From: Candidatus Latescibacterota bacterium
GTDB lineage: Bacteria; Latescibacterota; CBDEFO01
DNA length: 64,000 nucleotides
NCBI GenBank assembly: GCA_965237525.1
Contig: CBDEFO010000007.1
Coordinates: 736,001 to 800,000, forward strand
Direction of reading: 5' to 3'
The notes under the pieces were generated by a model that searched no databases, was not told where the DNA came from, and saw only the letters and a program-made list of their open reading frames with translations. A program made the translations under genes and the position numbers. Below, piece by piece: positions 1 to 59,627 of this stretch (its first letter is position 1; each line of letters starts with the position of its first letter).

Positions 1-1
1 T

Positions 2-1126
2 GCAGCAAGTGTGCCCGCCCCTCAAGTAGGAGATGACGACGGGGTTGGGAGGCTTGAAGGGGCCTATGTACATCGTTTGCCTGAGCCAGGCCCTGCTGAG
101 AATAGGTCGTACACCGAGGAATTCGGCTTCCCTGAGTATCTGATAGGACCGACCGATGAGCTGAAGATAAAATTGGCTTTTGGGACCCAAGAGACTGAGG
201 AGACCGTTGTCGTGCGACCGGATGGGAGGATCTCCTTTGAGTTGGTTCATGATCTGGAAGTGGCGGGTTTAACTCCAAGGGAAGTGGACGATCTCCTGAC
301 AGAGTCTCTAATTGTATATCTGAAAGTTCCAAAGGTGGATGTGTTAGTGGATAAATACAACAGCAGGAGGGTGGCTCTATTAGGCGCGATACAGACTACT
401 CAGCAGGCGGGAGACAATGGACCGGGCGTCTATTCACTAACTGGGAAAAAGACCGTGTTGGATATTATCCTGGAGGCAGGCGGACCTACGGACGATGCGC
501 AGTTGGACAGTATCAAGTTGACCAGGGGGAGTAAAGAATATATCATAAATCTTAATAGGATAAAGGACGCAAGTATCACTTTGGAGGGAGGAGACCTTGT
601 ACGAGTGCCCGGATTGTCGGTGGTGGATAGGAAGGTACTAGTGATAGGAGAGGTTAGATCTCAAGGGGTGTTCAGCTTCCCAAGCGACGTGAGTGTGATG
701 GAGGCTGTTATCAGGGCCGGCGGCTTCACGAATGACGCTGTAAGGGAGGATATAAAGATTATAAGAGGAGACGCGTCTAATCCTCAGATGTTTTCTGTGG
801 ATGCGGAAAGCATATTGGAGAACGCTGATCTGGCTCAGAATATTATACTTGAAAATAACGATATTCTTTATGTTCCGAGGTCATTCATATCGGATATAAA
901 TGTTGCCATAAACAAGATAAACCCGATATTGAGCCTAATTGTGTGGCCGAGCACCTATAGGGACCTGTACACGACAGGCGGCGGCTTGAGGATAGATACG
1001 GGACCTCCGGAGACAGGCACTACCACCCTGCGGACGCTCCCAATAGGTAAGCCCACAGCGGGAGCGAAGGCTGTGGCTGACAACGAGAAAGATTCCAAGG
1101 AAAAAAAGACCTCTCAAGATGAGTAG
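2..1126 (+). CDS. wza: Polysaccharide export outer-membrane protein (Wza/Poly_export + SLBB repeats), 5'-partial
   Basis: YLIGPTDEL..VRPDGRISF..AGLTP Poly_export motif, then SLBB repeats (VIGEVRSQG, AGGFT); frame open to the window edge. Confidence 0.9.
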   Translation, partial: AASVPAPQVGDDDGVGRLEGAYVHRLPEPGPAENRSYTEEFGFPEYLIGPTDELKIKLAFGTQETEETVVVRPDGRISFELVHDLEVAGLTPREVDDLLTESLIVYLKVPKVDVLVDKYNSRRVALLGAIQTTQQAGDNGPGVYSLTGKKTVLDIILEAGGPTDDAQLDSIKLTRGSKEYIINLNRIKDASITLEGGDLVRVPGLSVVDRKVLVIGEVRSQGVFSFPSDVSVMEAVIRAGGFTNDAVREDIKIIRGDASNPQMFSVDAESILENADLAQNIILENNDILYVPRSFISDINVAINKINPILSLIVWPSTYRDLYTTGGGLRIDTGPPETGTTTLRTLPIGKPTAGAKAVADNEKDSKEKKTSQDE

Positions 1127-1149: not shown

Positions 1150-4100
1150 ATGGCGTCTCAATATGAATTAAGCTTAAGAGACTACTGGCGGATACTGCGC
1201 AAGCGGAGGTTTCTCATTGCCTTCACTGCGTTGATGTTGGGGATATTCACCTTTATGGTGAGTTCTTTTTCAAGACCTGTCCCTAAATATAGCGCCTCTG
1301 CAAAGATACAGATTGAAAAGGAAACTTCACCGACCAGTCAATATACCGATGCACTATCGTCGTACTACGGAGGAGGAGGTGACCTGGAGACAAGAAAAGG
1401 TGTTATAAGAAGTCAGAAAGTTTTGTCTATCGCCTCCAAAAACTTAGGCATGATAGGAAAAGACATCAGTTTGACAGAAATAGCCGATACCCCTGAATAT
1501 ATTCGCAAGATCGAAAGCCTTGAGAAGAGCGTGAGTATTGAGCAGGAAGAACTTACCGATATTATAACCATCTCAGCCGTACACATCTATCCCGATACGG
1601 CGGCAAAGATTGCAAACGCTGTCGCAGAGGCATATAGGGATTACCACTGGGATCAGGTGACGAGCCAGCCCAAGGAAGCAATAAGACGCATAAAGGAGTT
1701 GACGGACGCTGAGAAAGATAGTCTGGCACAGGCCGAGATGAATTTGAAAAGGTACAGGGAGGAAAAGAATATCATCTCTTTGGTCGCTCAGACGAGCCTT
1801 GTGCTGAGCGAGAAGTCCATAACTCGAACATCGCATACGGAGGCAGAGTCAGCTTTAAATCAGATCAATGATGTTATTAAGCAGGTAGATAAGGTGGGAA
1901 CTATATCGGAGGAGGCGCTGGAGAGCCTCCCGAAAAGATCGCTACAGGTGTTTTCATGTCTTTGGCAACAAGCCTAACTAATCTAAGCAGCGAAAGGGAA
2001 GTCTTGCTTTTAGACTATAGTGTTAGGCACCCTCAGCTTCGGGCGACAGATATTAAGATTGCTAATGTCAAGAAGGATATGGTCGAGGAGCTAAGAGGGA
2101 TGCAAAAGGCGCTGGAGGTCGAGCAGAAAAAGTTCAAGGCGAGGCTGGACGCGCTATCGGCAGAAGAAAAGAGGATCCCTCAAAGGCGACTGGAACTTGA
2201 GAGGCTTATGGCAGATGTGGAAGGTAGACGTCAGATAGTTACGGCTTTGGAGGAACAGTACCATACAGCAAGGATACAAATGGAGAGCACCGGGGCCGAA
2301 CGGGTGGTGATAATTCAACACGCATTCGCATCCAGTGTACCCATAAATCCGACTAATCCTCTGTCTATAGCTGTTGTAGGATCTGCCATAGGCATGATAT
2401 TAGGGCTCCTTTTTGCATTTATTGCTGAGACTATGGACACTTCTATAGGGACGATCGAGGACGTCGAAGAGTATGTGGGGGCTTCTGTAGTGGGGCTGAT
2501 ACCTCACATAGATATTGAAGAGGTGAAAGCGTCTCTAATGGCCAAGGGAGTGGCTGATCAAGATGAAGCGGCTATAGAGCAGAAGGCGCGATTGGTAGCG
2601 CATTTTGATCCTCAGTCTAACATAGCAGAAAGCTACAGGGCCTTAAGGACGAACATCCAGTTTTTGACTGTTGAGAAGAACGCCAAAAGTGTTTTGGTCA
2701 CAAGCTCCACCCAGCAGGAGGGTAAGACGACGACGATGGTGAATTTTGCCATGACCATGGCTCAGGTGGGGGAAAAGACGCTCCTTATAGACACCGATTT
2801 GAGAAAACCTGTGGTCAATAAAGTATTCGGGTTGGAAAGAGAACCTGGTTTGTCGGACGTGATACTGGGCAATTACGACTACAAGGACGTTGTCAGGACT
2901 GTGGCGGACATAATGACAGGGGAAATGGGCATGGAGGATATTATGATGACCCCTGGGATGGATAATCTGAACATAATCACCAGCGGAACGATTCCCCCTA
3001 ACCCCACTGAAATATTGAGCTCACAGTCTATGAAGGATTTCATAAGGGAAGTGGAGGAGGACTACGATATAGTGCTCTTTGACTGCCCCCCCATACTCCA
3101 GGCCACCGACGCAGCCATCTTGGCCCGAGAAATAGATGGGGTGATCCTGGTATATAGGGTGGGTGAGGTTCCGAGAAATTCGTTGAAGCGGGCAAAGCTT
3201 CAGTTGGATCAAGTGGATGTTCAGACGCTGGGGATTGTGCTGAACGGCGCTCGCGCGGATATAAGCTCGGACTTCTACGATATGAGGTATTACTATTCGT
3301 CGTATTACTCTTACGGCAGTGAAAATAGAGAGGAATCGAAAGCCGGACTGCTGTCCAGGCTCGTGGATAACGCCAAATCTGTATTCGGCAGCAGTAATGG
3401 TAAAGATTCAGAAAAGGGCGAACGCTCCGCCGAAAGCAAAGACAGCGAAACAGGAAAAGGCAAAGTTGCAAGATTAGGGGTCAACGTTTTCTTGTCTGCG
3501 TTTGTGGCCGTAGGGTTCATGTGGCAGATGGGTCTGATATCGCTTGGAAAGCAGATAGATAGAAAACGTACAGAAAACACAGAAATTCCAATCGAGAGAG
3601 AATTGACAGAAACACCTAAAGGAATTCGGGAGGAAAAGGTAGATGCCCCTATTGACAAAGAGTCCAAAGTAAAAGGGGCGTATCAGAGCCAAACGGGGAC
3701 TCCGAAGAGTATTCAAGCATCTTTTGAGGAAAAAGGCGTTTCAAAGGAGACGAATGCAGATCCAGAACGAGATATTGTAGGGGCGTTGGACTCCTCCCAT
3801 GAAACCGATGGGTCCCAAAGCGTCGCCACAGCAGCGCTTGCGCCCGAAGAGAAAGATCCAGTTTACTTAAAGGATATAGCAGAACGTCTACAGGGAACCG
3901 AGAATCTTCCCATGGAGACAAACCATGATAGAAAGAGACCTTTCTCCGTACATGTAGGATCGTATAAGATGCTAGAAAATATGAACCTACAGATGGAACG
4001 ACTCAGGGCAAAGGGATACGAGGTGTTTGTCGTGGGTGCAAATGTGGGCGGTGACACCTTCCACAGGATTTTGGTAGGCGGGTTCGAAAACATCGTTGGA

Positions 4101-4391
4101 GCAAAGGTACAAGCTGATCATTTGAAAATGAGGGGCCATACAGATTATGCGGAGGCTATGGATTTGCCTTACGGCGTGCAGATAGGCACCTTTGACCTGA
4201 GGGAACTTGCCCAATATGAAGCTGATGAGTTAATAAAGGATGGCTATTATCCGTATATAACGGTTGCAGATGGACTGGACAGCGCAAGTTTCAGTTTAAT
4301 GTTAGGAGCGTTTAAGACAGAAAAGGAGGCCGAAGCGTTCTCCCAAGAGATGGGAGGAAAGGGAAAGTCTAATCAGGTCATCCTAAGATAG
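1150..4391 (+). CDS. wzc: Wzc/GumC-like polysaccharide co-polymerase BY-kinase with C-terminal TM + two SPOR domains; split by a 1-nt frameshift near 1930
   Basis: N-half ELSLRDYWRILRKRR (Wzz). C-half has Walker A SSTQQEGKTT, A' LIDTDLRKP, B LFDCPP, Tyr cluster YDMRYYYSSYYSY and SPOR-like FSVHVGSY / YGVQIGTF. ORFs 1150-1977 and 1956-4391 join if one C is added at ctcccg. Confidence 0.88.
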
Positions 4392-4760: not shown

Positions 4761-5072
4761 GTGATTTCAATGCCATATTCGAGCCATTCAAGGCGCTCAC
4801 GCCGTTCACGCCGTAGAAGAAGTGGACGATCTAATGTAAAGAGGGAGACCAAGCTATATCTGGCTATAACACTTGCGTGCTTTTTAGCTGCCGCTTTCAT
4901 AAGTTTTGTGACAGGCGCAGCCCCCGATCTCATAAGGGGCTTTATCAGTAATTATGTCCAAAAAACGATAAGCACTGAGATCAAAAAGGCTCAGGAGGAA
5001 ATATCCTCTGGGGGTGGTATGGACGTCGATAAGATGAAAGAGATGATGGGAAAATCAAAAAGGGGAAGATAG
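4761..5072 (+). CDS. Small membrane protein with Arg/Ser-rich N-terminus
   Basis: 103-aa ORF, purine-rich RBS-like sequence upstream, SRRSRRSRRRRSGR then one hydrophobic helix. Confidence 0.6.
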   Translation: MISMPYSSHSRRSRRSRRRRSGRSNVKRETKLYLAITLACFLAAAFISFVTGAAPDLIRGFISNYVQKTISTEIKKAQEEISSGGGMDVDKMKEMMGKSKRGR

Positions 5073-5127: not shown

Positions 5128-6545
5128 ATGAACTCTCGCTATAGAAACTCAAGTGTGCTTTCCTTGGGAGGAATAGTTGTCTTAACGCTGTTACTGTCCC
5201 TGGTAGTATCGAGGGTACCATACGAAATGAGCATTGCCCTCGTTATAGGTGTCTGTGTGCTTGTCGTCAGTTTTTTGTACGCAGAGGCAGTTTTTTGTAC
5301 GCAGAGGCAGCTATTTATATCCTTATCCTTTCAATGCTCCTTTCACCTGAGTTTGGAACCAGAGAGACAAGCGGAGAGGGAGCGACTATCCGACTGGAGG
5401 ATATACTTCTGGTGGTCGTAGGTTGCAGTTGGTTAGCGAGGATGGCTGTACATAAGGATCTGGGATTCTTTTTGAAGACGGAGTTCAACCGTCCGATTCG
5501 GAACTATGCAATGGCGTGTATCCTTGCCACAGGAGCAGGGATACTCTACGGAGACGTTAAATCTCCGATCACAGGCTTCTTTTTCGTCTTGAAATACATA
5601 GAGTACTTTGTGATGTTTTTTATGGTGGTAAATCATATCGAGAGCAGAAGACAGGTCAGATCGTTTCTGATAGTGGCTTTGATAACGTGTTCTATTGTAT
5701 GTTTTGCATCTTTGGCTCAGATACCGGCGGGAGGTAGGATAACTGCGCCCTTCGAAGGAGAAGGTGGCGAGCCGAATACGCTGGGGGGCTATCTGGTGCT
5801 CATGTTGTCTCTGGTGCTAGGACTCCTTTTTAATATGGATGATCGGGATTCAAAAACGTATAAGAGGGCGCTGTTAGGACTTTCGTTTCTGTGTGCAGTT
5901 CTGATTCTATTTACACAGTCGAGAGGGTCGTGGATGGCTGTGGGGGTTATGTACGTAACGCTGACTGTCTTAAGTAAGAGGAGACTATTGCTCATCCTGG
6001 GGCTCTTGGTAGTGATCCCTCTTTCTCCAGTTATCCTGCCAAAGGCTGTTAAGGAGAGGGTGTCGTACACGTTCAAAAAGGGCGAATCTGAGCAGTGGAG
6101 GAAAATGCAAAGGGATGTAGGCGGTGTTACTCTGGATACTTCGACTTCAGATAGATTGGGGGCTTGGGAGAACGCCTTAAAGGGATTTCTGCGCCATCCG
6201 ATACTGGGATATGGGATTACAGGTTGGAGATTCTTGGACGCTCAATTTATAAAGACGCTGGTCGAAACAGGACTTGTGGGTTTCACCGCCTTCATCGCCC
6301 TCTTGGTCAAGATCCTTCAGGTGGCGTGGAGAACTTACAAACAGACCGAAGATAGAATGTACAAAGGGATATGCATGGGATTTTTTGTCGGTACGGTCGC
6401 TATGATCGCACATGGACTCTTCGCGAATACGTTTATTATAGTCAGGATCATGGAGCCTTACTGGCTCCTCGGGGGACTAGTGGTGATAATTCCCATTCTG
6501 GAGGCAAAAGCAAATGAGGCATCCCTGGAGACTGTAGCTGCTTAG
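5128..6545 (+). pseudogene. O-antigen ligase/polymerase (Wzy_C) family protein, frameshifted by a 20-bp tandem duplication
   Basis: Multi-TM; EPNTLGGYL, FTQSRGSW, HPILGYG, VETGLVG motifs; ttttttgtacgcagaggcag duplicated at 5271-5310 splits ORFs 5128-5421 and 5295-6545. Confidence 0.8.
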
Positions 6546-8360: not shown

Positions 8361-9189
8361 GTGAGTTTCGGGGTGCTTTTCAGGACTAACTGGGAGGATT
8401 TGAGCAGAAAGGTTAAGAGTCTCTATCGTTATTTTTATTCTGAGGATGTAGAACAAGGGGATGCGATTTACTCTGTCGATGTCCAGAGCGTAGAAGCAAC
8501 AGATCAGAAGGTCTTTACGGTCTTTGAAAGGGGAGAAGTTCTGTGTCGAACGTATGATCTGGCACGGCTTCTCCCCTTTTTAGAAAACCGAATTACAGAT
8601 ACGGCTTTACGTGGGTTGGACAATTTCTTTCAGATCCACTCGGGGGTTGTAAGCGTAGGTGGAAAGGCTTTGCTCCTTCCGGGGCCTCCGGGCAGCGGGA
8701 AGACCACTTTGGCGCTCGGACTGGTTCTTTCAGGGTTCAAGTATTTGTCTGAAGGAAGTGGCTTTAATAGACCCCAGTTCACTGGATGTGGTTCCATTTC
8801 CGAGGAGCCTGTGCTTTAAGGAAAGGTCGTTTGATGCCCTGGCACAACTGATCTCTAAAACAGGGTCCAAGGACGCCGAGTGGGGAATAGATTGTGGAGG
8901 AGTCCATTATATAGATGTGACAGACATAGCGGCGGATCCTTACGGAGAACCTGCACCTGTGGGATATGTGATCTTTCCAACGTACAACCCAAACGGTAAG
9001 TCAGTCCTCTCAAAGATAAGTCGTGCTGAAGCCGCATCCCGGATTGCCCAGATGTCGCTCAACTTCTCCTCTTACGGCAAGAGCGGGGCAGATATTGCAG
9101 TAGAAATAGCAAGAAATGCAGAGTGCTGGGCTCTTTCTGTGGGTGATCCGGAGGAGTCCGTAAGCTTAATTTCAGAGGTGATAGGTTAG
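8361..9189 (+). CDS. HPr kinase-related kinase; 1-nt frameshift near 8752
   Basis: IHSGVV..LLLPGPPGSGKTT..YLS then (E)EVALID..VVPFPRSL in the next frame; ORFs 8361-8819 and 8659-9189. Confidence 0.8.
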
Positions 9190-58315: not shown

Positions 58316-59627
58316 TTAGGGGTTATTTATCAAATGAAATCGGTGCACTTCTCTTTCGATCTTTGATTGATCTTGAATGATAGGTTTTCGACAATCTTTG
58401 GTTTCTGTTCTTTTTCAAAATGGATGTATAATTGTTCTTCTTTTAGGTTCCATTCAGCCAGGACAAAGTAGTTGGTGTAAGAGGAGGGAAGAGATACTTT
58501 CTCATTTAGGACATCGATAAAGGCTTTATCTGTCTGTTCTGTGTCCTGTTTGACTTGTCTGATAAAATAGGTCTTGGGAATGAAATCTTTCTCGTTTGAC
58601 TTCTCTTGCTTAGGTGGACGGTAGCCGGTGTATCTCTGTGATGAAAGATTAAACCATTCTAACTTCTGATCAACTTCTTGTAAGCTTTTGAACTGAATTC
58701 TGTTCCAGAACTTCCTTGAAAATACAGAATTGTTGCCTTCTATAGATGCTTGAGAAAAGGGCCTTCTGGGAACGGCAAATATCGGAATCACTTGATTTTT
58801 CAAGAGAAACTGCATTGCTTTGCTGACATTCCTTTCACCTGAAACACTGCCAATAGTCGCCGAGCAATTGTCCACCTTAACGAAATCTGGTTTTTCAAAC
58901 CTGTCAAAGAAAGACTGACACTTCTCGATAAAGTTAGTTGCTGTTTGACCGTCAACCCGCCGAAAATACCTTAACTTAGGCTCTTTCTTAAAGGAAAATC
59001 CAACGAAGTTGACCGGCTCAGTTCTGCCGGTAAGATACTTTTTACCAATAAAGTCTGATTCTAGGACTCTGCCTCCTAAAAGATAGTAAATGGTATACTC
59101 TGGATAACAAAGATAACGAGATGCACCCTTGTTTTTACCTTTCTTCCTTCTCTGGGAAAGTCCTAAATCTGAAAGCATTCTGCCGATAGTCGGCAACGAC
59201 GGAGGAGGGGTGCTAGAATATCGATTCCTCCATTCTTGTTCAATAACAGTGGCTCCTGAATAGAACTGATAAGGATCGTCCTCTAAGCTATGGTAAATCT
59301 CTTTGATTCTCTGTTCGTCAACTTTAGCCAATTTTTGCCTTTTTCCTTTTGGCCAACCCCGATTATCCATGGCAAAATCCTGATCCGGAGATTTAGTCCA
59401 AGCTGTAACGAAATCATTGGAAACTCTCGCTTGTTTGATAACTTCTCGCTTTGACATTTCTTTCTTAAAATACATCTCGTTGACTTCTTGTCTTAATACG
59501 GCCAATCTCTCTTTGTCCATAGGACTCCGTAGATTAAAGTTAAGACAATCAACTCAACTTAATCTACTAATACTCTAAACAAAGATCAAATTAGGTGCAC
59601 CGATTTTATTTGATATTCAACCACTAG
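58316..59627 (-). mobile_element. Insertion sequence with terminal inverted repeats
   Basis: IR core tatcaaat(g/a)aaatcggtgcac at 58328-58348 and inverted at 59595-59615; flanking agtagaca direct repeat. Confidence 0.85.
58330..59520 (-). CDS. DDE transposase (rve integrase core, IS481/ISNCY-like)
   Basis: N-terminal HTH, PSLPTIGRML, ESDF, KVDN, IEGNN. Confidence 0.8.
   Translation of the reverse strand: MDKERLAVLRQEVNEMYFKKEMSKREVIKQARVSNDFVTAWTKSPDQDFAMDNRGWPKGKRQKLAKVDEQRIKEIYHSLEDDPYQFYSGATVIEQEWRNRYSSTPPPSLPTIGRMLSDLGLSQRRKKGKNKGASRYLCYPEYTIYYLLGGRVLESDFIGKKYLTGRTEPVNFVGFSFKKEPKLRYFRRVDGQTATNFIEKCQSFFDRFEKPDFVKVDNCSATIGSVSGERNVSKAMQFLLKNQVIPIFAVPRRPFSQASIEGNNSVFSRKFWNRIQFKSLQEVDQKLEWFNLSSQRYTGYRPPKQEKSNEKDFIPKTYFIRQVKQDTEQTDKAFIDVLNEKVSLPSSYTNYFVLAEWNLKEEQLYIHFEKEQKPKIVENLSFKINQRSKEKCTDFI

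Follow-up and report, generated by a model that had tools for sequence, protein, structure and literature searches.

We analysed a stretch of 64,000 nucleotides (the window) from the genome of a Candidatus Latescibacterota bacterium (GenBank assembly GCA_965237525.1, contig CBDEFO010000007.1, positions 736,001 to 800,000 of the forward strand), in which the open reading frame (ORF) 1956..4391 carries the kinase part of a Wzc-type polysaccharide co-polymerase and tyrosine kinase. In the accessible portions of the relevant papers (PMC12220298, PMC11986026, PMC12881504, PMC13469938) Wzc is described with two transmembrane (TM) helices and a free, C-terminal Tyr tail. In the window the chain instead runs on past the Tyr cluster through a predicted third helix (TM3) and a spacer into two SPOR domains. 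The features of the gene are listed below; the genome of the window is called G000, and a genome of the same genus (101 mismatches in 5412 aligned bases) is called G001.

1150..1977, + strand: 5' half of wzc, encoding TM1, the Wzz domain and the start of the periplasmic coiled coil (Pfam Wzz, 39.9 bits; collinear with residues 1-260 of the G001 protein; out of frame after about 1928, stop TAA at 1975-1977)
1928..1929, + strand: 1-bp deletion relative to G001 that splits wzc (pairwise alignment; contigs of runs X1, X2, X4 and X8)
1956..2366, + strand: rest of the periplasmic coiled coil, or GNVR region (weak Pfam GNVR match of 22.7 bits, below cut-off; alignment)
2367..2423, + strand: TM2, residues 138-156 (hydropathy 2.56)
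2628..3272, + strand: bacterial tyrosine kinase (BY-kinase) domain (TIGR01007; ExxRxxR at 2628, Walker A EGKT at 2718, A' DTDLR at 2790, Walker B IVLFD at 3069; the model matches the CapAB/Wzc kinase with Z 33)
3273..3314, + strand: Tyr cluster of seven Tyr, internal rather than C-terminal (sequence; Tyr columns conserved in the alignment)
3315..3464, + strand: cytoplasmic linker of about 50 amino acids (aa) from the Tyr cluster to TM3 (family range 13-123 aa, median 52; mostly low confidence in the model)
3465..3533, + strand: TM3, ending in the family motif G-x-x-W-Q-x-G (hydropathy 1.83; helix 771-793 in the G001 model)
3534..3932, + strand: periplasmic spacer of 133 aa, predicted to be disordered (predicted local distance difference test score, pLDDT, below 50 over most of it; family range 11-297 aa)
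3933..4166, + strand: SPOR1, with His666 at the canonical Gln position and Ser669 and Arg704 kept (Pfam, 34.0 bits; fold match to the RlpA SPOR domain 6I0N; DedD alignment)
4167..4391, + strand: SPOR2, with Gln742 kept, Ser at the Arg position and a net acidic composition, and the stop codon TAG (Pfam, 33.8 bits; composition; column profile)

ORF 1956..4391 is a single open frame of 811 aa. Its kinase scores 196.5 bits against TIGR01007 (cut-off 108) and has all of its motifs intact, with EGKT at residue 255, DTDLR at 279 and IVLFD at 372. The Tyr cluster (residues 440-453) is followed by a further 358 aa, which begin with the linker and continue into a hydrophobic helix at residues 504-522 (Kyte-Doolittle 1.83) and an acidic spacer at residues 527-659 (28 D/E vs 19 K/R). 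The whole protein matches Pfam SPOR with an E-value of 1.4e-14, and both units, scored singly against PF05036, lie above the gathering cut-off of 21. An earlier sequence-only reading of this DNA had described a BY-kinase continuing for some 350 aa through a hydrophobic helix and an acidic linker into two SPOR repeats, and each of these parts was recovered. Its proposal that the chain re-crosses the membrane is supported by TM3, the SPOR pair being predicted to be periplasmic from a cytoplasmic kinase and one further helix. That reading overlooked the frameshift upstream: the ORF is only the 3' part of wzc, and ATG 1956 corresponds to the internal Met270 of the intact protein of G001, where one extra base at about 1928 restores a single frame of 1080 aa.

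The intact G001 protein has TM1 and TM2 at residues 22-40 and 408-426, flanking a periplasmic Wzz domain (Pfam match) and coiled coil, as expected of a polysaccharide co-polymerase of class 2a (PCP-2a); in the window these elements are split over two ORFs. Other PCP-2a characters are present as well, namely the Walker A, A', B and ExxRxxR motifs, a Tyr-rich cluster after the kinase, and a Wzx/Wzy locus with an outer-membrane export (OPX) gene. Wzc of Escherichia coli (PDB 7NHR, 9R62, 9EXQ, 3LA6), the best PDB match both by profile (E-value 5e-93) and by fold, shares this plan from TM1 to the Tyr cluster and has the same kinds of neighbors, wza, wzy, wzx and glycosyltransferase genes. The differences lie beyond: in the protein described here the Tyr cluster is internal and is followed by TM3, the spacer and two SPOR units, so that neither a free C-terminal Tyr cluster nor a two-TM topology is found, and the solved Wzc constructs among the matches listed have no more than 738 aa vs 1080 aa.

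The tail itself resembles DedD, DamX and FtsN in having a TM helix, a low-complexity spacer and a C-terminal SPOR domain, and it matches DedD (6ZTG) by profile with an E-value of 4e-6. It differs from them in its tandem SPOR units, the frequent replacement of a canonical Gln, its fusion to a kinase and its place in a polysaccharide locus. Scores against the corresponding NCBIfam models fall far short of the cut-offs (for the tail from genome G010, 32.5 vs 107.65 for TIGR02223, FtsN, and 16.4 vs 150 for DedD), and the G001 tail has no NCBIfam match. The tailed protein is not FtsN or DedD. It presumably works like Wzc and departs from PCP-2a in its internal Tyr cluster and its predicted third TM helix, while co-polymerase and kinase share one chain in G001, G010, G013 and G023 but are separated in the allele of the window.

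We modeled the G001 protein with AlphaFold2 using an alignment of 101 rows (mean pLDDT 80.9, predicted template-modelling score 0.45). TM3 appears as a helix and the linkers as disordered, and the 10-residue blocks of the SPOR pair have pLDDT values of 90-97, with one at 75. Both modeled units have the SPOR fold, an RNP-like arrangement of an antiparallel sheet and two helices. SPOR1 superimposes on the SPOR-glycan complex of RlpA (6I0N) with Z 10.3 and a root-mean-square deviation of 2.3 over 76 of 77 residues; for SPOR2 a listed match is 6OZD, a putative exported protein (Z 11.9). Modeling the SPOR pair from its sequence alone gave a poor result, with a mean pLDDT of 46.7, which we discarded. 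Foldseek with the full model returned only Wzc and kinase structures among the matches listed, and the ESM Atlas gave no match at or above 0.9, its nearest clusters being kinase-only or SPOR-only, which is uninformative on novelty.

Across the SPOR-tailed rows of the alignment the kinase appears to be maintained: Walker A is present in 89/89 and ExxRxxR in 85/89, and the Tyr cluster, counted in 88 tailed rows, has a median of five Tyr. The G-x-x-W-Q-x-G motif at TM3 is recognizable by column (Gly in 72, Trp in 73, Gln in 56 and Gly in 55 of 101 rows), and a strict W/Y-Q-x-G near TM3 is found in only 41/89 SPOR-tailed rows. Of 88 tails, 56 have more Lys plus Arg ahead of TM3 than behind it, 17 have the same number on both sides, and 15 have fewer ahead of it. 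The protein of the window is basic on both sides of TM3, and the topology therefore rests mainly on the cytoplasmic kinase and one TM helix; on this ground the SPOR pair is likely periplasmic.

The architecture is widespread. Among the 41 genomes searched first, full fusions were found in G001, G010, G013 and G023, and one cut by a contig end in G018. A search of the phylum with the G010 protein (E-value at or below 1e-60) gave matches in 56 of 168 genomes. We classified the best 30 of these 56 with an in-house profile, the other 26 standing outside the count: 24 loci have TM3 and SPOR in frame, one has a TPR tail, two stop at a contig end beyond TM3, and in three the tail is out of frame or follows a stop. 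Pfam gave a match in 16 of the 21 phylum tails tested, 13 of them over the cut-off. Database proteins were then clustered at 50% identity and the best 150 representatives taken, 147 of which have a whole kinase. These divide into 59 with TM3 and SPOR, 11 with TM3 and another long tail, 14 with TM3 and a short end, two with long tails without a clear TM helix, and 61 without TM3; some of those without TM3 may be partial proteins, and some of the short-ended ones probably are. Pfam confirmed SPOR in 20 of 22 representatives tested, and the TM3-plus-SPOR representatives stand at 30-65% identity. The layout that the sequence-only reading had suggested looking for in relatives is thus conserved and not an artefact of one assembly.

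Fusions are present too in records whose titles read Methylomirabilota and Neomarinimicrobiota, and two tailed proteins have cluster members bearing the names Tectomicrobia (tail by the in-house profile only) and Spirochaetes. A FastTree phylogeny built from only the core places 88 of the 89 rows labelled SPOR in a single branch of 170 rows (support 96), which also includes 49 tail-less rows; the rows are related, include near-duplicates and are not independent, and the SPOR label of P0043 was set by eye. Two trees suggested an independent origin of the tail of P0129, an idea we dropped because a tree with P0129 inside the clade is more likely (approximately unbiased (AU) test, p 0.85). The test of tail loss in L007 and L009 gave p 0.65; the quick tree search fell about 25 log units short of the optimum, a figure to be set against 310 for the test of the SH3 rows described below. 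GC content (0.469 in the tail vs 0.486 in the core) and GC at third codon positions give no clear sign of recent acquisition. The predicted TM3-plus-SPOR layout is a mark of a broad Wzc clade; it is common in Latescibacterota and is also found in other uncultured phyla.

What follows TM3 varies within the clade. Two SPOR units are present in 62 of 89 tails. Bacterial SH3 domains end four proteins, one ends in a Cds6_C NTF2 domain together with SPOR, and the tail from G015 resembles the TPR region of YbgF/CpoB at 87.2 bits, just below the cut-off of 90.1. SH3b is a wall-binding fold. Placing the SH3 rows in a single clade was rejected (AU p 6e-88; 310 log units), in a test whose group was picked after the first tree had been seen, and the starred branches of the tree force at least three separate changes from SPOR to SH3b. 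The constant element is TM3 with a predicted periplasmic appendage, most often of a wall-binding fold. Clade members with other tails (P0009, P0010, P0106, P0108 and P0118) carry either a pair of TM helices with long acidic stretches behind them or a Lys-rich stretch resembling histone H1 (Pfam HC2).

The genes around wzc are those of a polysaccharide synthesis and export locus, starting with wza and the tailed wzc and going on with the small TM protein, the Wzy_C polymerase, a methyltransferase, genes of PqqD- and HprK-like type, GT4 and GT2 glycosyltransferases, a flippase (Polysacc_synt) and a WecA/MraY-like transferase. The immediate neighbors are the following.

1..1126, + strand: 3' part of wza, an OPX outer-membrane export gene that begins upstream of the window (Pfam PF02563, Poly_export, and PF10531, SLBB; frame open from upstream)
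4761..5072, + strand: small protein with a single TM helix, a basic Arg/Ser-rich N-terminus and no family (no Pfam or NCBIfam match; similar ORFs follow tailed wzc in G001, G010, L025 and L026, by eye)
5128..6545, + strand: cognate polymerase, Wzy or O-antigen-ligase-like, split by a 20-bp duplication (Pfam Wzy_C)

In G013, G018 and G023 a different hydrophobic ORF of 70 aa follows the tailed wzc. Among the 31 tailed loci whose downstream sequence reaches 450 bases or more, 26 have one Wzy subfamily, recognized by eye, following wzc; none of four tail-less loci does. In the window a tandem duplication of 20 bp (5268-5287) divides wzy into ORFs of 97 and 416 aa, compared with 465 aa in G001; since neither G001 nor any of the six runs with contigs over the site has it, it is an assembly error. 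An extra A at 8752 splits an HprK-related gene (8361-8819 and 8659-9189). It is present in X1 and X6 and absent from X9 and from G001 (275 aa), and is therefore probably a real polymorphic frameshift.

Elsewhere in the genome, G000 (96.6% complete) carries FtsZ, four Amidase_3 matches and two other SPOR proteins. At L131 (contig C8, near 297300) TPR-like repeats and a SPOR domain, labelled by eye, share a frame of 357 aa, and at L132 (C7, near 302500) a probable lipoprotein with two SPOR units, also by eye, lies beside a gene resembling lytic transglycosylases. We found no match to a tyrosine phosphatase of the low-molecular-weight (LMW-PTP, Wzb) type in G000; a CpsB/CapC-type PHP phosphatase at C7:859954-860652, about 120 kb from the locus, is the likely partner of the kinase. 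A link to PEP-CTERM and exosortase was considered and dropped, as the XrtA-like neighbors score only below cut-off and G000 has no exosortase match. Upstream of the window (C7, about 730000-731400) a transposase-like ORF of about 476 aa lies in a stretch missing from G001, and response-regulator/GGDEF, ExeA-like ATPase, HD-GYP-like and nucleotidyltransferase-like genes, some named by eye, separate it from wza. Within the window, an ORF of 396 aa at 58330-59520, an integrase or transposase by eye, lies between pnp and ribF.

The tail could act as a leash. The chain of the Wzc-type co-polymerase and kinase would pass through TM3 and the spacer into a periplasmic SPOR pair, which likely binds peptidoglycan, and would thereby tie the Wza-Wzc export machine to the cell wall. 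The octamer, by analogy with E. coli Wzc, would go through cycles driven by Tyr phosphorylation, and in this family it would have as many as eight flexible arms. Through these arms the channel that spans the envelope may be kept on the wall, probably where amidases have left stem-less glycan, at places which could, but need not, be the septum. We favor this attachment of the Wzc ring to peptidoglycan by its tail, probably through stem-less glycan, as the explanation, and we consider its chances of being right and wrong about equal.

A number of observations weigh against such a tether. The tail is dispensable in part of the clade, as indicated by the representatives without TM3 and by the complete tail-less relatives L007-L010 of the same phylum, which end normally. 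In the 14 short-ended representatives (some of them probably cut) TM3 carries only a short C-terminus, and a few clade members have acidic or Lys-rich tails without a wall-binding domain. No fixed geometry explains a spacer ranging from 11 to 297 aa. The canonical Gln, expected to touch glycan, is also poorly kept. The accessible part of one study (PMC6895207) names Gln270 and a basic patch as the key SPOR-glycan contacts, and we mapped the contact positions (RlpA Q270, FtsN Q251; R309, R285) through the DedD alignment together with that source, FtsN itself being unaligned. The Gln is kept in only 20 of 78 SPOR1 units and replaced in the other 58 (His in 23, Arg in 17); in SPOR2 it is kept in 6 of 67, and the Arg in 33 of 59. 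In the window SPOR1 has His and Arg and SPOR2 has Gln and Ser, so that neither unit combines the Gln with the basic patch. Because the canonical Gln is mostly lost, binding by SPOR may be weak or altered.

The same residues bear on a narrower possibility, the view taken in the sequence-only reading: the SPOR pair would attach to glycan denuded by amidases where the cell divides, and Wzc, together with polysaccharide synthesis and export, would be drawn to the septum and the new poles. Recruitment of CpsCD in pneumococci would then have a fusion-based counterpart in diderms. According to the available text of PMC6895207, the SPOR proteins known have roles in division or morphogenesis and attach to denuded glycan, and that of PMC10233549 reports that the co-polymerase CpsC sets the site of capsule synthesis, moving CpsC moving synthesis with it. 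In SPOR1 the contact residues Ser (60 of 78 units) and Arg (75 of 84) are retained, the single TPR replacement resembles a division protein, YbgF/CpoB, and both amidases and FtsZ are encoded in G000. However, some three quarters of SPOR1 units, that of the window (His666) among them, have lost the Gln, SH3b has taken the place of SPOR at least three times, and no division gene was recognized among the ORFs of positions 1-27,400 of the window. We know of no septal preference of SH3b. Strict septal targeting, the main rival, is accordingly on the doubtful side, and a general wall tether fits the Gln counts and the SH3b exchanges better.

The likeness to Streptococcus pneumoniae CpsC/CpsD (PCP-2b) is that of a BY-kinase system fixing the site of polysaccharide synthesis (PMC10233549, as far as its accessible text goes). 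That system consists of two proteins in a monoderm, recruited through divisome-associated proteins, and the same text mentions no wall-binding domain, whereas here a fused module would do the positioning. A bolder reading, which we think rather unlikely, is that these proteins form an undescribed three-pass class of Wzc with its own peptidoglycan sensor, in which as many as eight SPOR arms would direct polysaccharide export to septal wall opened by amidases and, by way of TM3 fixed to the end of the Tyr tail, could gate the kinase cycle on the state of the wall. If true, this would be a direct link, in a single protein, between division and secretion of capsule or exopolysaccharide in Gram-negative bacteria.

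TM3 and the tail might instead serve mainly to tune the kinase cycle or to dock a partner. With the far end of the Tyr tail tied to TM3, octamer assembly could shift when the wall is bound or when TM3 packs against Wzy or against TM1 and TM2; in E. coli the Tyr tail ratchets through the neighboring active site (PMC11986026, in the portion available). The conserved motif at the end of TM3, the persistence of TM3 in SPOR-less relatives and the co-occurrence with one Wzy subfamily are consistent with such a regulatory arm. On the other hand, the linkers flanking TM3 are long, variable and predicted to be disordered, which would make them poor transmitters of force, and the strict motif is missing from more than half of the SPOR-tailed rows. 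We regard this role as improbable compared with the wall tether.

A different question is whether the tailed protein is made at all in the lineage of the window. The contigs of X1, X2, X4 and X8, which come from four studies (three of them independent, as X1 may be the source of this assembly), have the same lengths as the window across position 1928 and lack the extra base, and since contigs from several studies carry the deletion the split of wzc looks real rather than an assembly error. A second loss of one base, C7 to C6 at 3086 in the kinase, is present in contigs of X2, X6 and X12 (three studies; two of the three contigs at depth 2), and in X2 it lies on the same contig as the deletion near 1928. 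The loss in the C7 run may mean either that a second frameshift segregates in the population or that this is a slipped-strand site. A second, tail-less wzc paralogue (C7:210205-212800) is also broken in the assembly sequence, by a stop near 211351 and a frameshift near 212030, while its G001 frame is open over 868 aa.

The split gene might still work as two polypeptides, if translation starts anew at ATG 1956 or slips by -1 around 1928: the sequence AGGTG is found 5 nt upstream of this ATG, the two ORFs overlap by 22 nt, and the deletion recurs in four studies. Yet for the second product the 137 aa preceding TM2 would presumably have to be exported with no signal, no standard slippery heptamer was seen, some contigs carry the additional kinase frameshift, and the paralogue is broken too; we judge this reading quite improbable. 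Because the deletion separates TM1 and Wzz from the rest of the protein, the tailed allele is probably decaying and non-functional in this lineage. The single polypeptide of co-polymerase and kinase is intact in G001, G010, G013 and G023, and the biology proposed here accordingly rests on these intact relatives.

That a stop was lost through an error of assembly or sequencing, fusing wzc to what is really a separate SPOR gene, is next to impossible: the erroneous duplication at 5268 and the 3 of 30 loci with the tail in another frame or after a stop are outweighed by the same in-frame fusion in G001, in 24 of 30 phylum loci, in 59 representatives and in contigs of three runs (X1, X2 and X4), each of which covers the tail in one piece, and neither these contigs nor G001 show a stop after the Tyr cluster, or any frame-changing difference from there to the end of the gene, as the sequence-only reading had allowed for.

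We found no description of a Wzc-TM3-SPOR fusion in the literature searched by titles and abstract openings, a coverage that left the main SPOR review and supplements outside. In the portions of main text available from two 2026 Wza-Wzc structure papers neither "peptidoglycan" nor "septum" occurs, and to that extent they leave the placement of the export channel in the diderm wall unaddressed. A natural Wzc with an exchangeable, putatively wall-binding arm would offer a direct handle on this placement. The SPOR pair, at about 150 aa, can be expressed, tested for glycan binding, localized in E. coli and grafted onto E. coli Wzc. For the family as a whole, the tailed proteins indicate that the Tyr cluster need not be terminal in Wzc.

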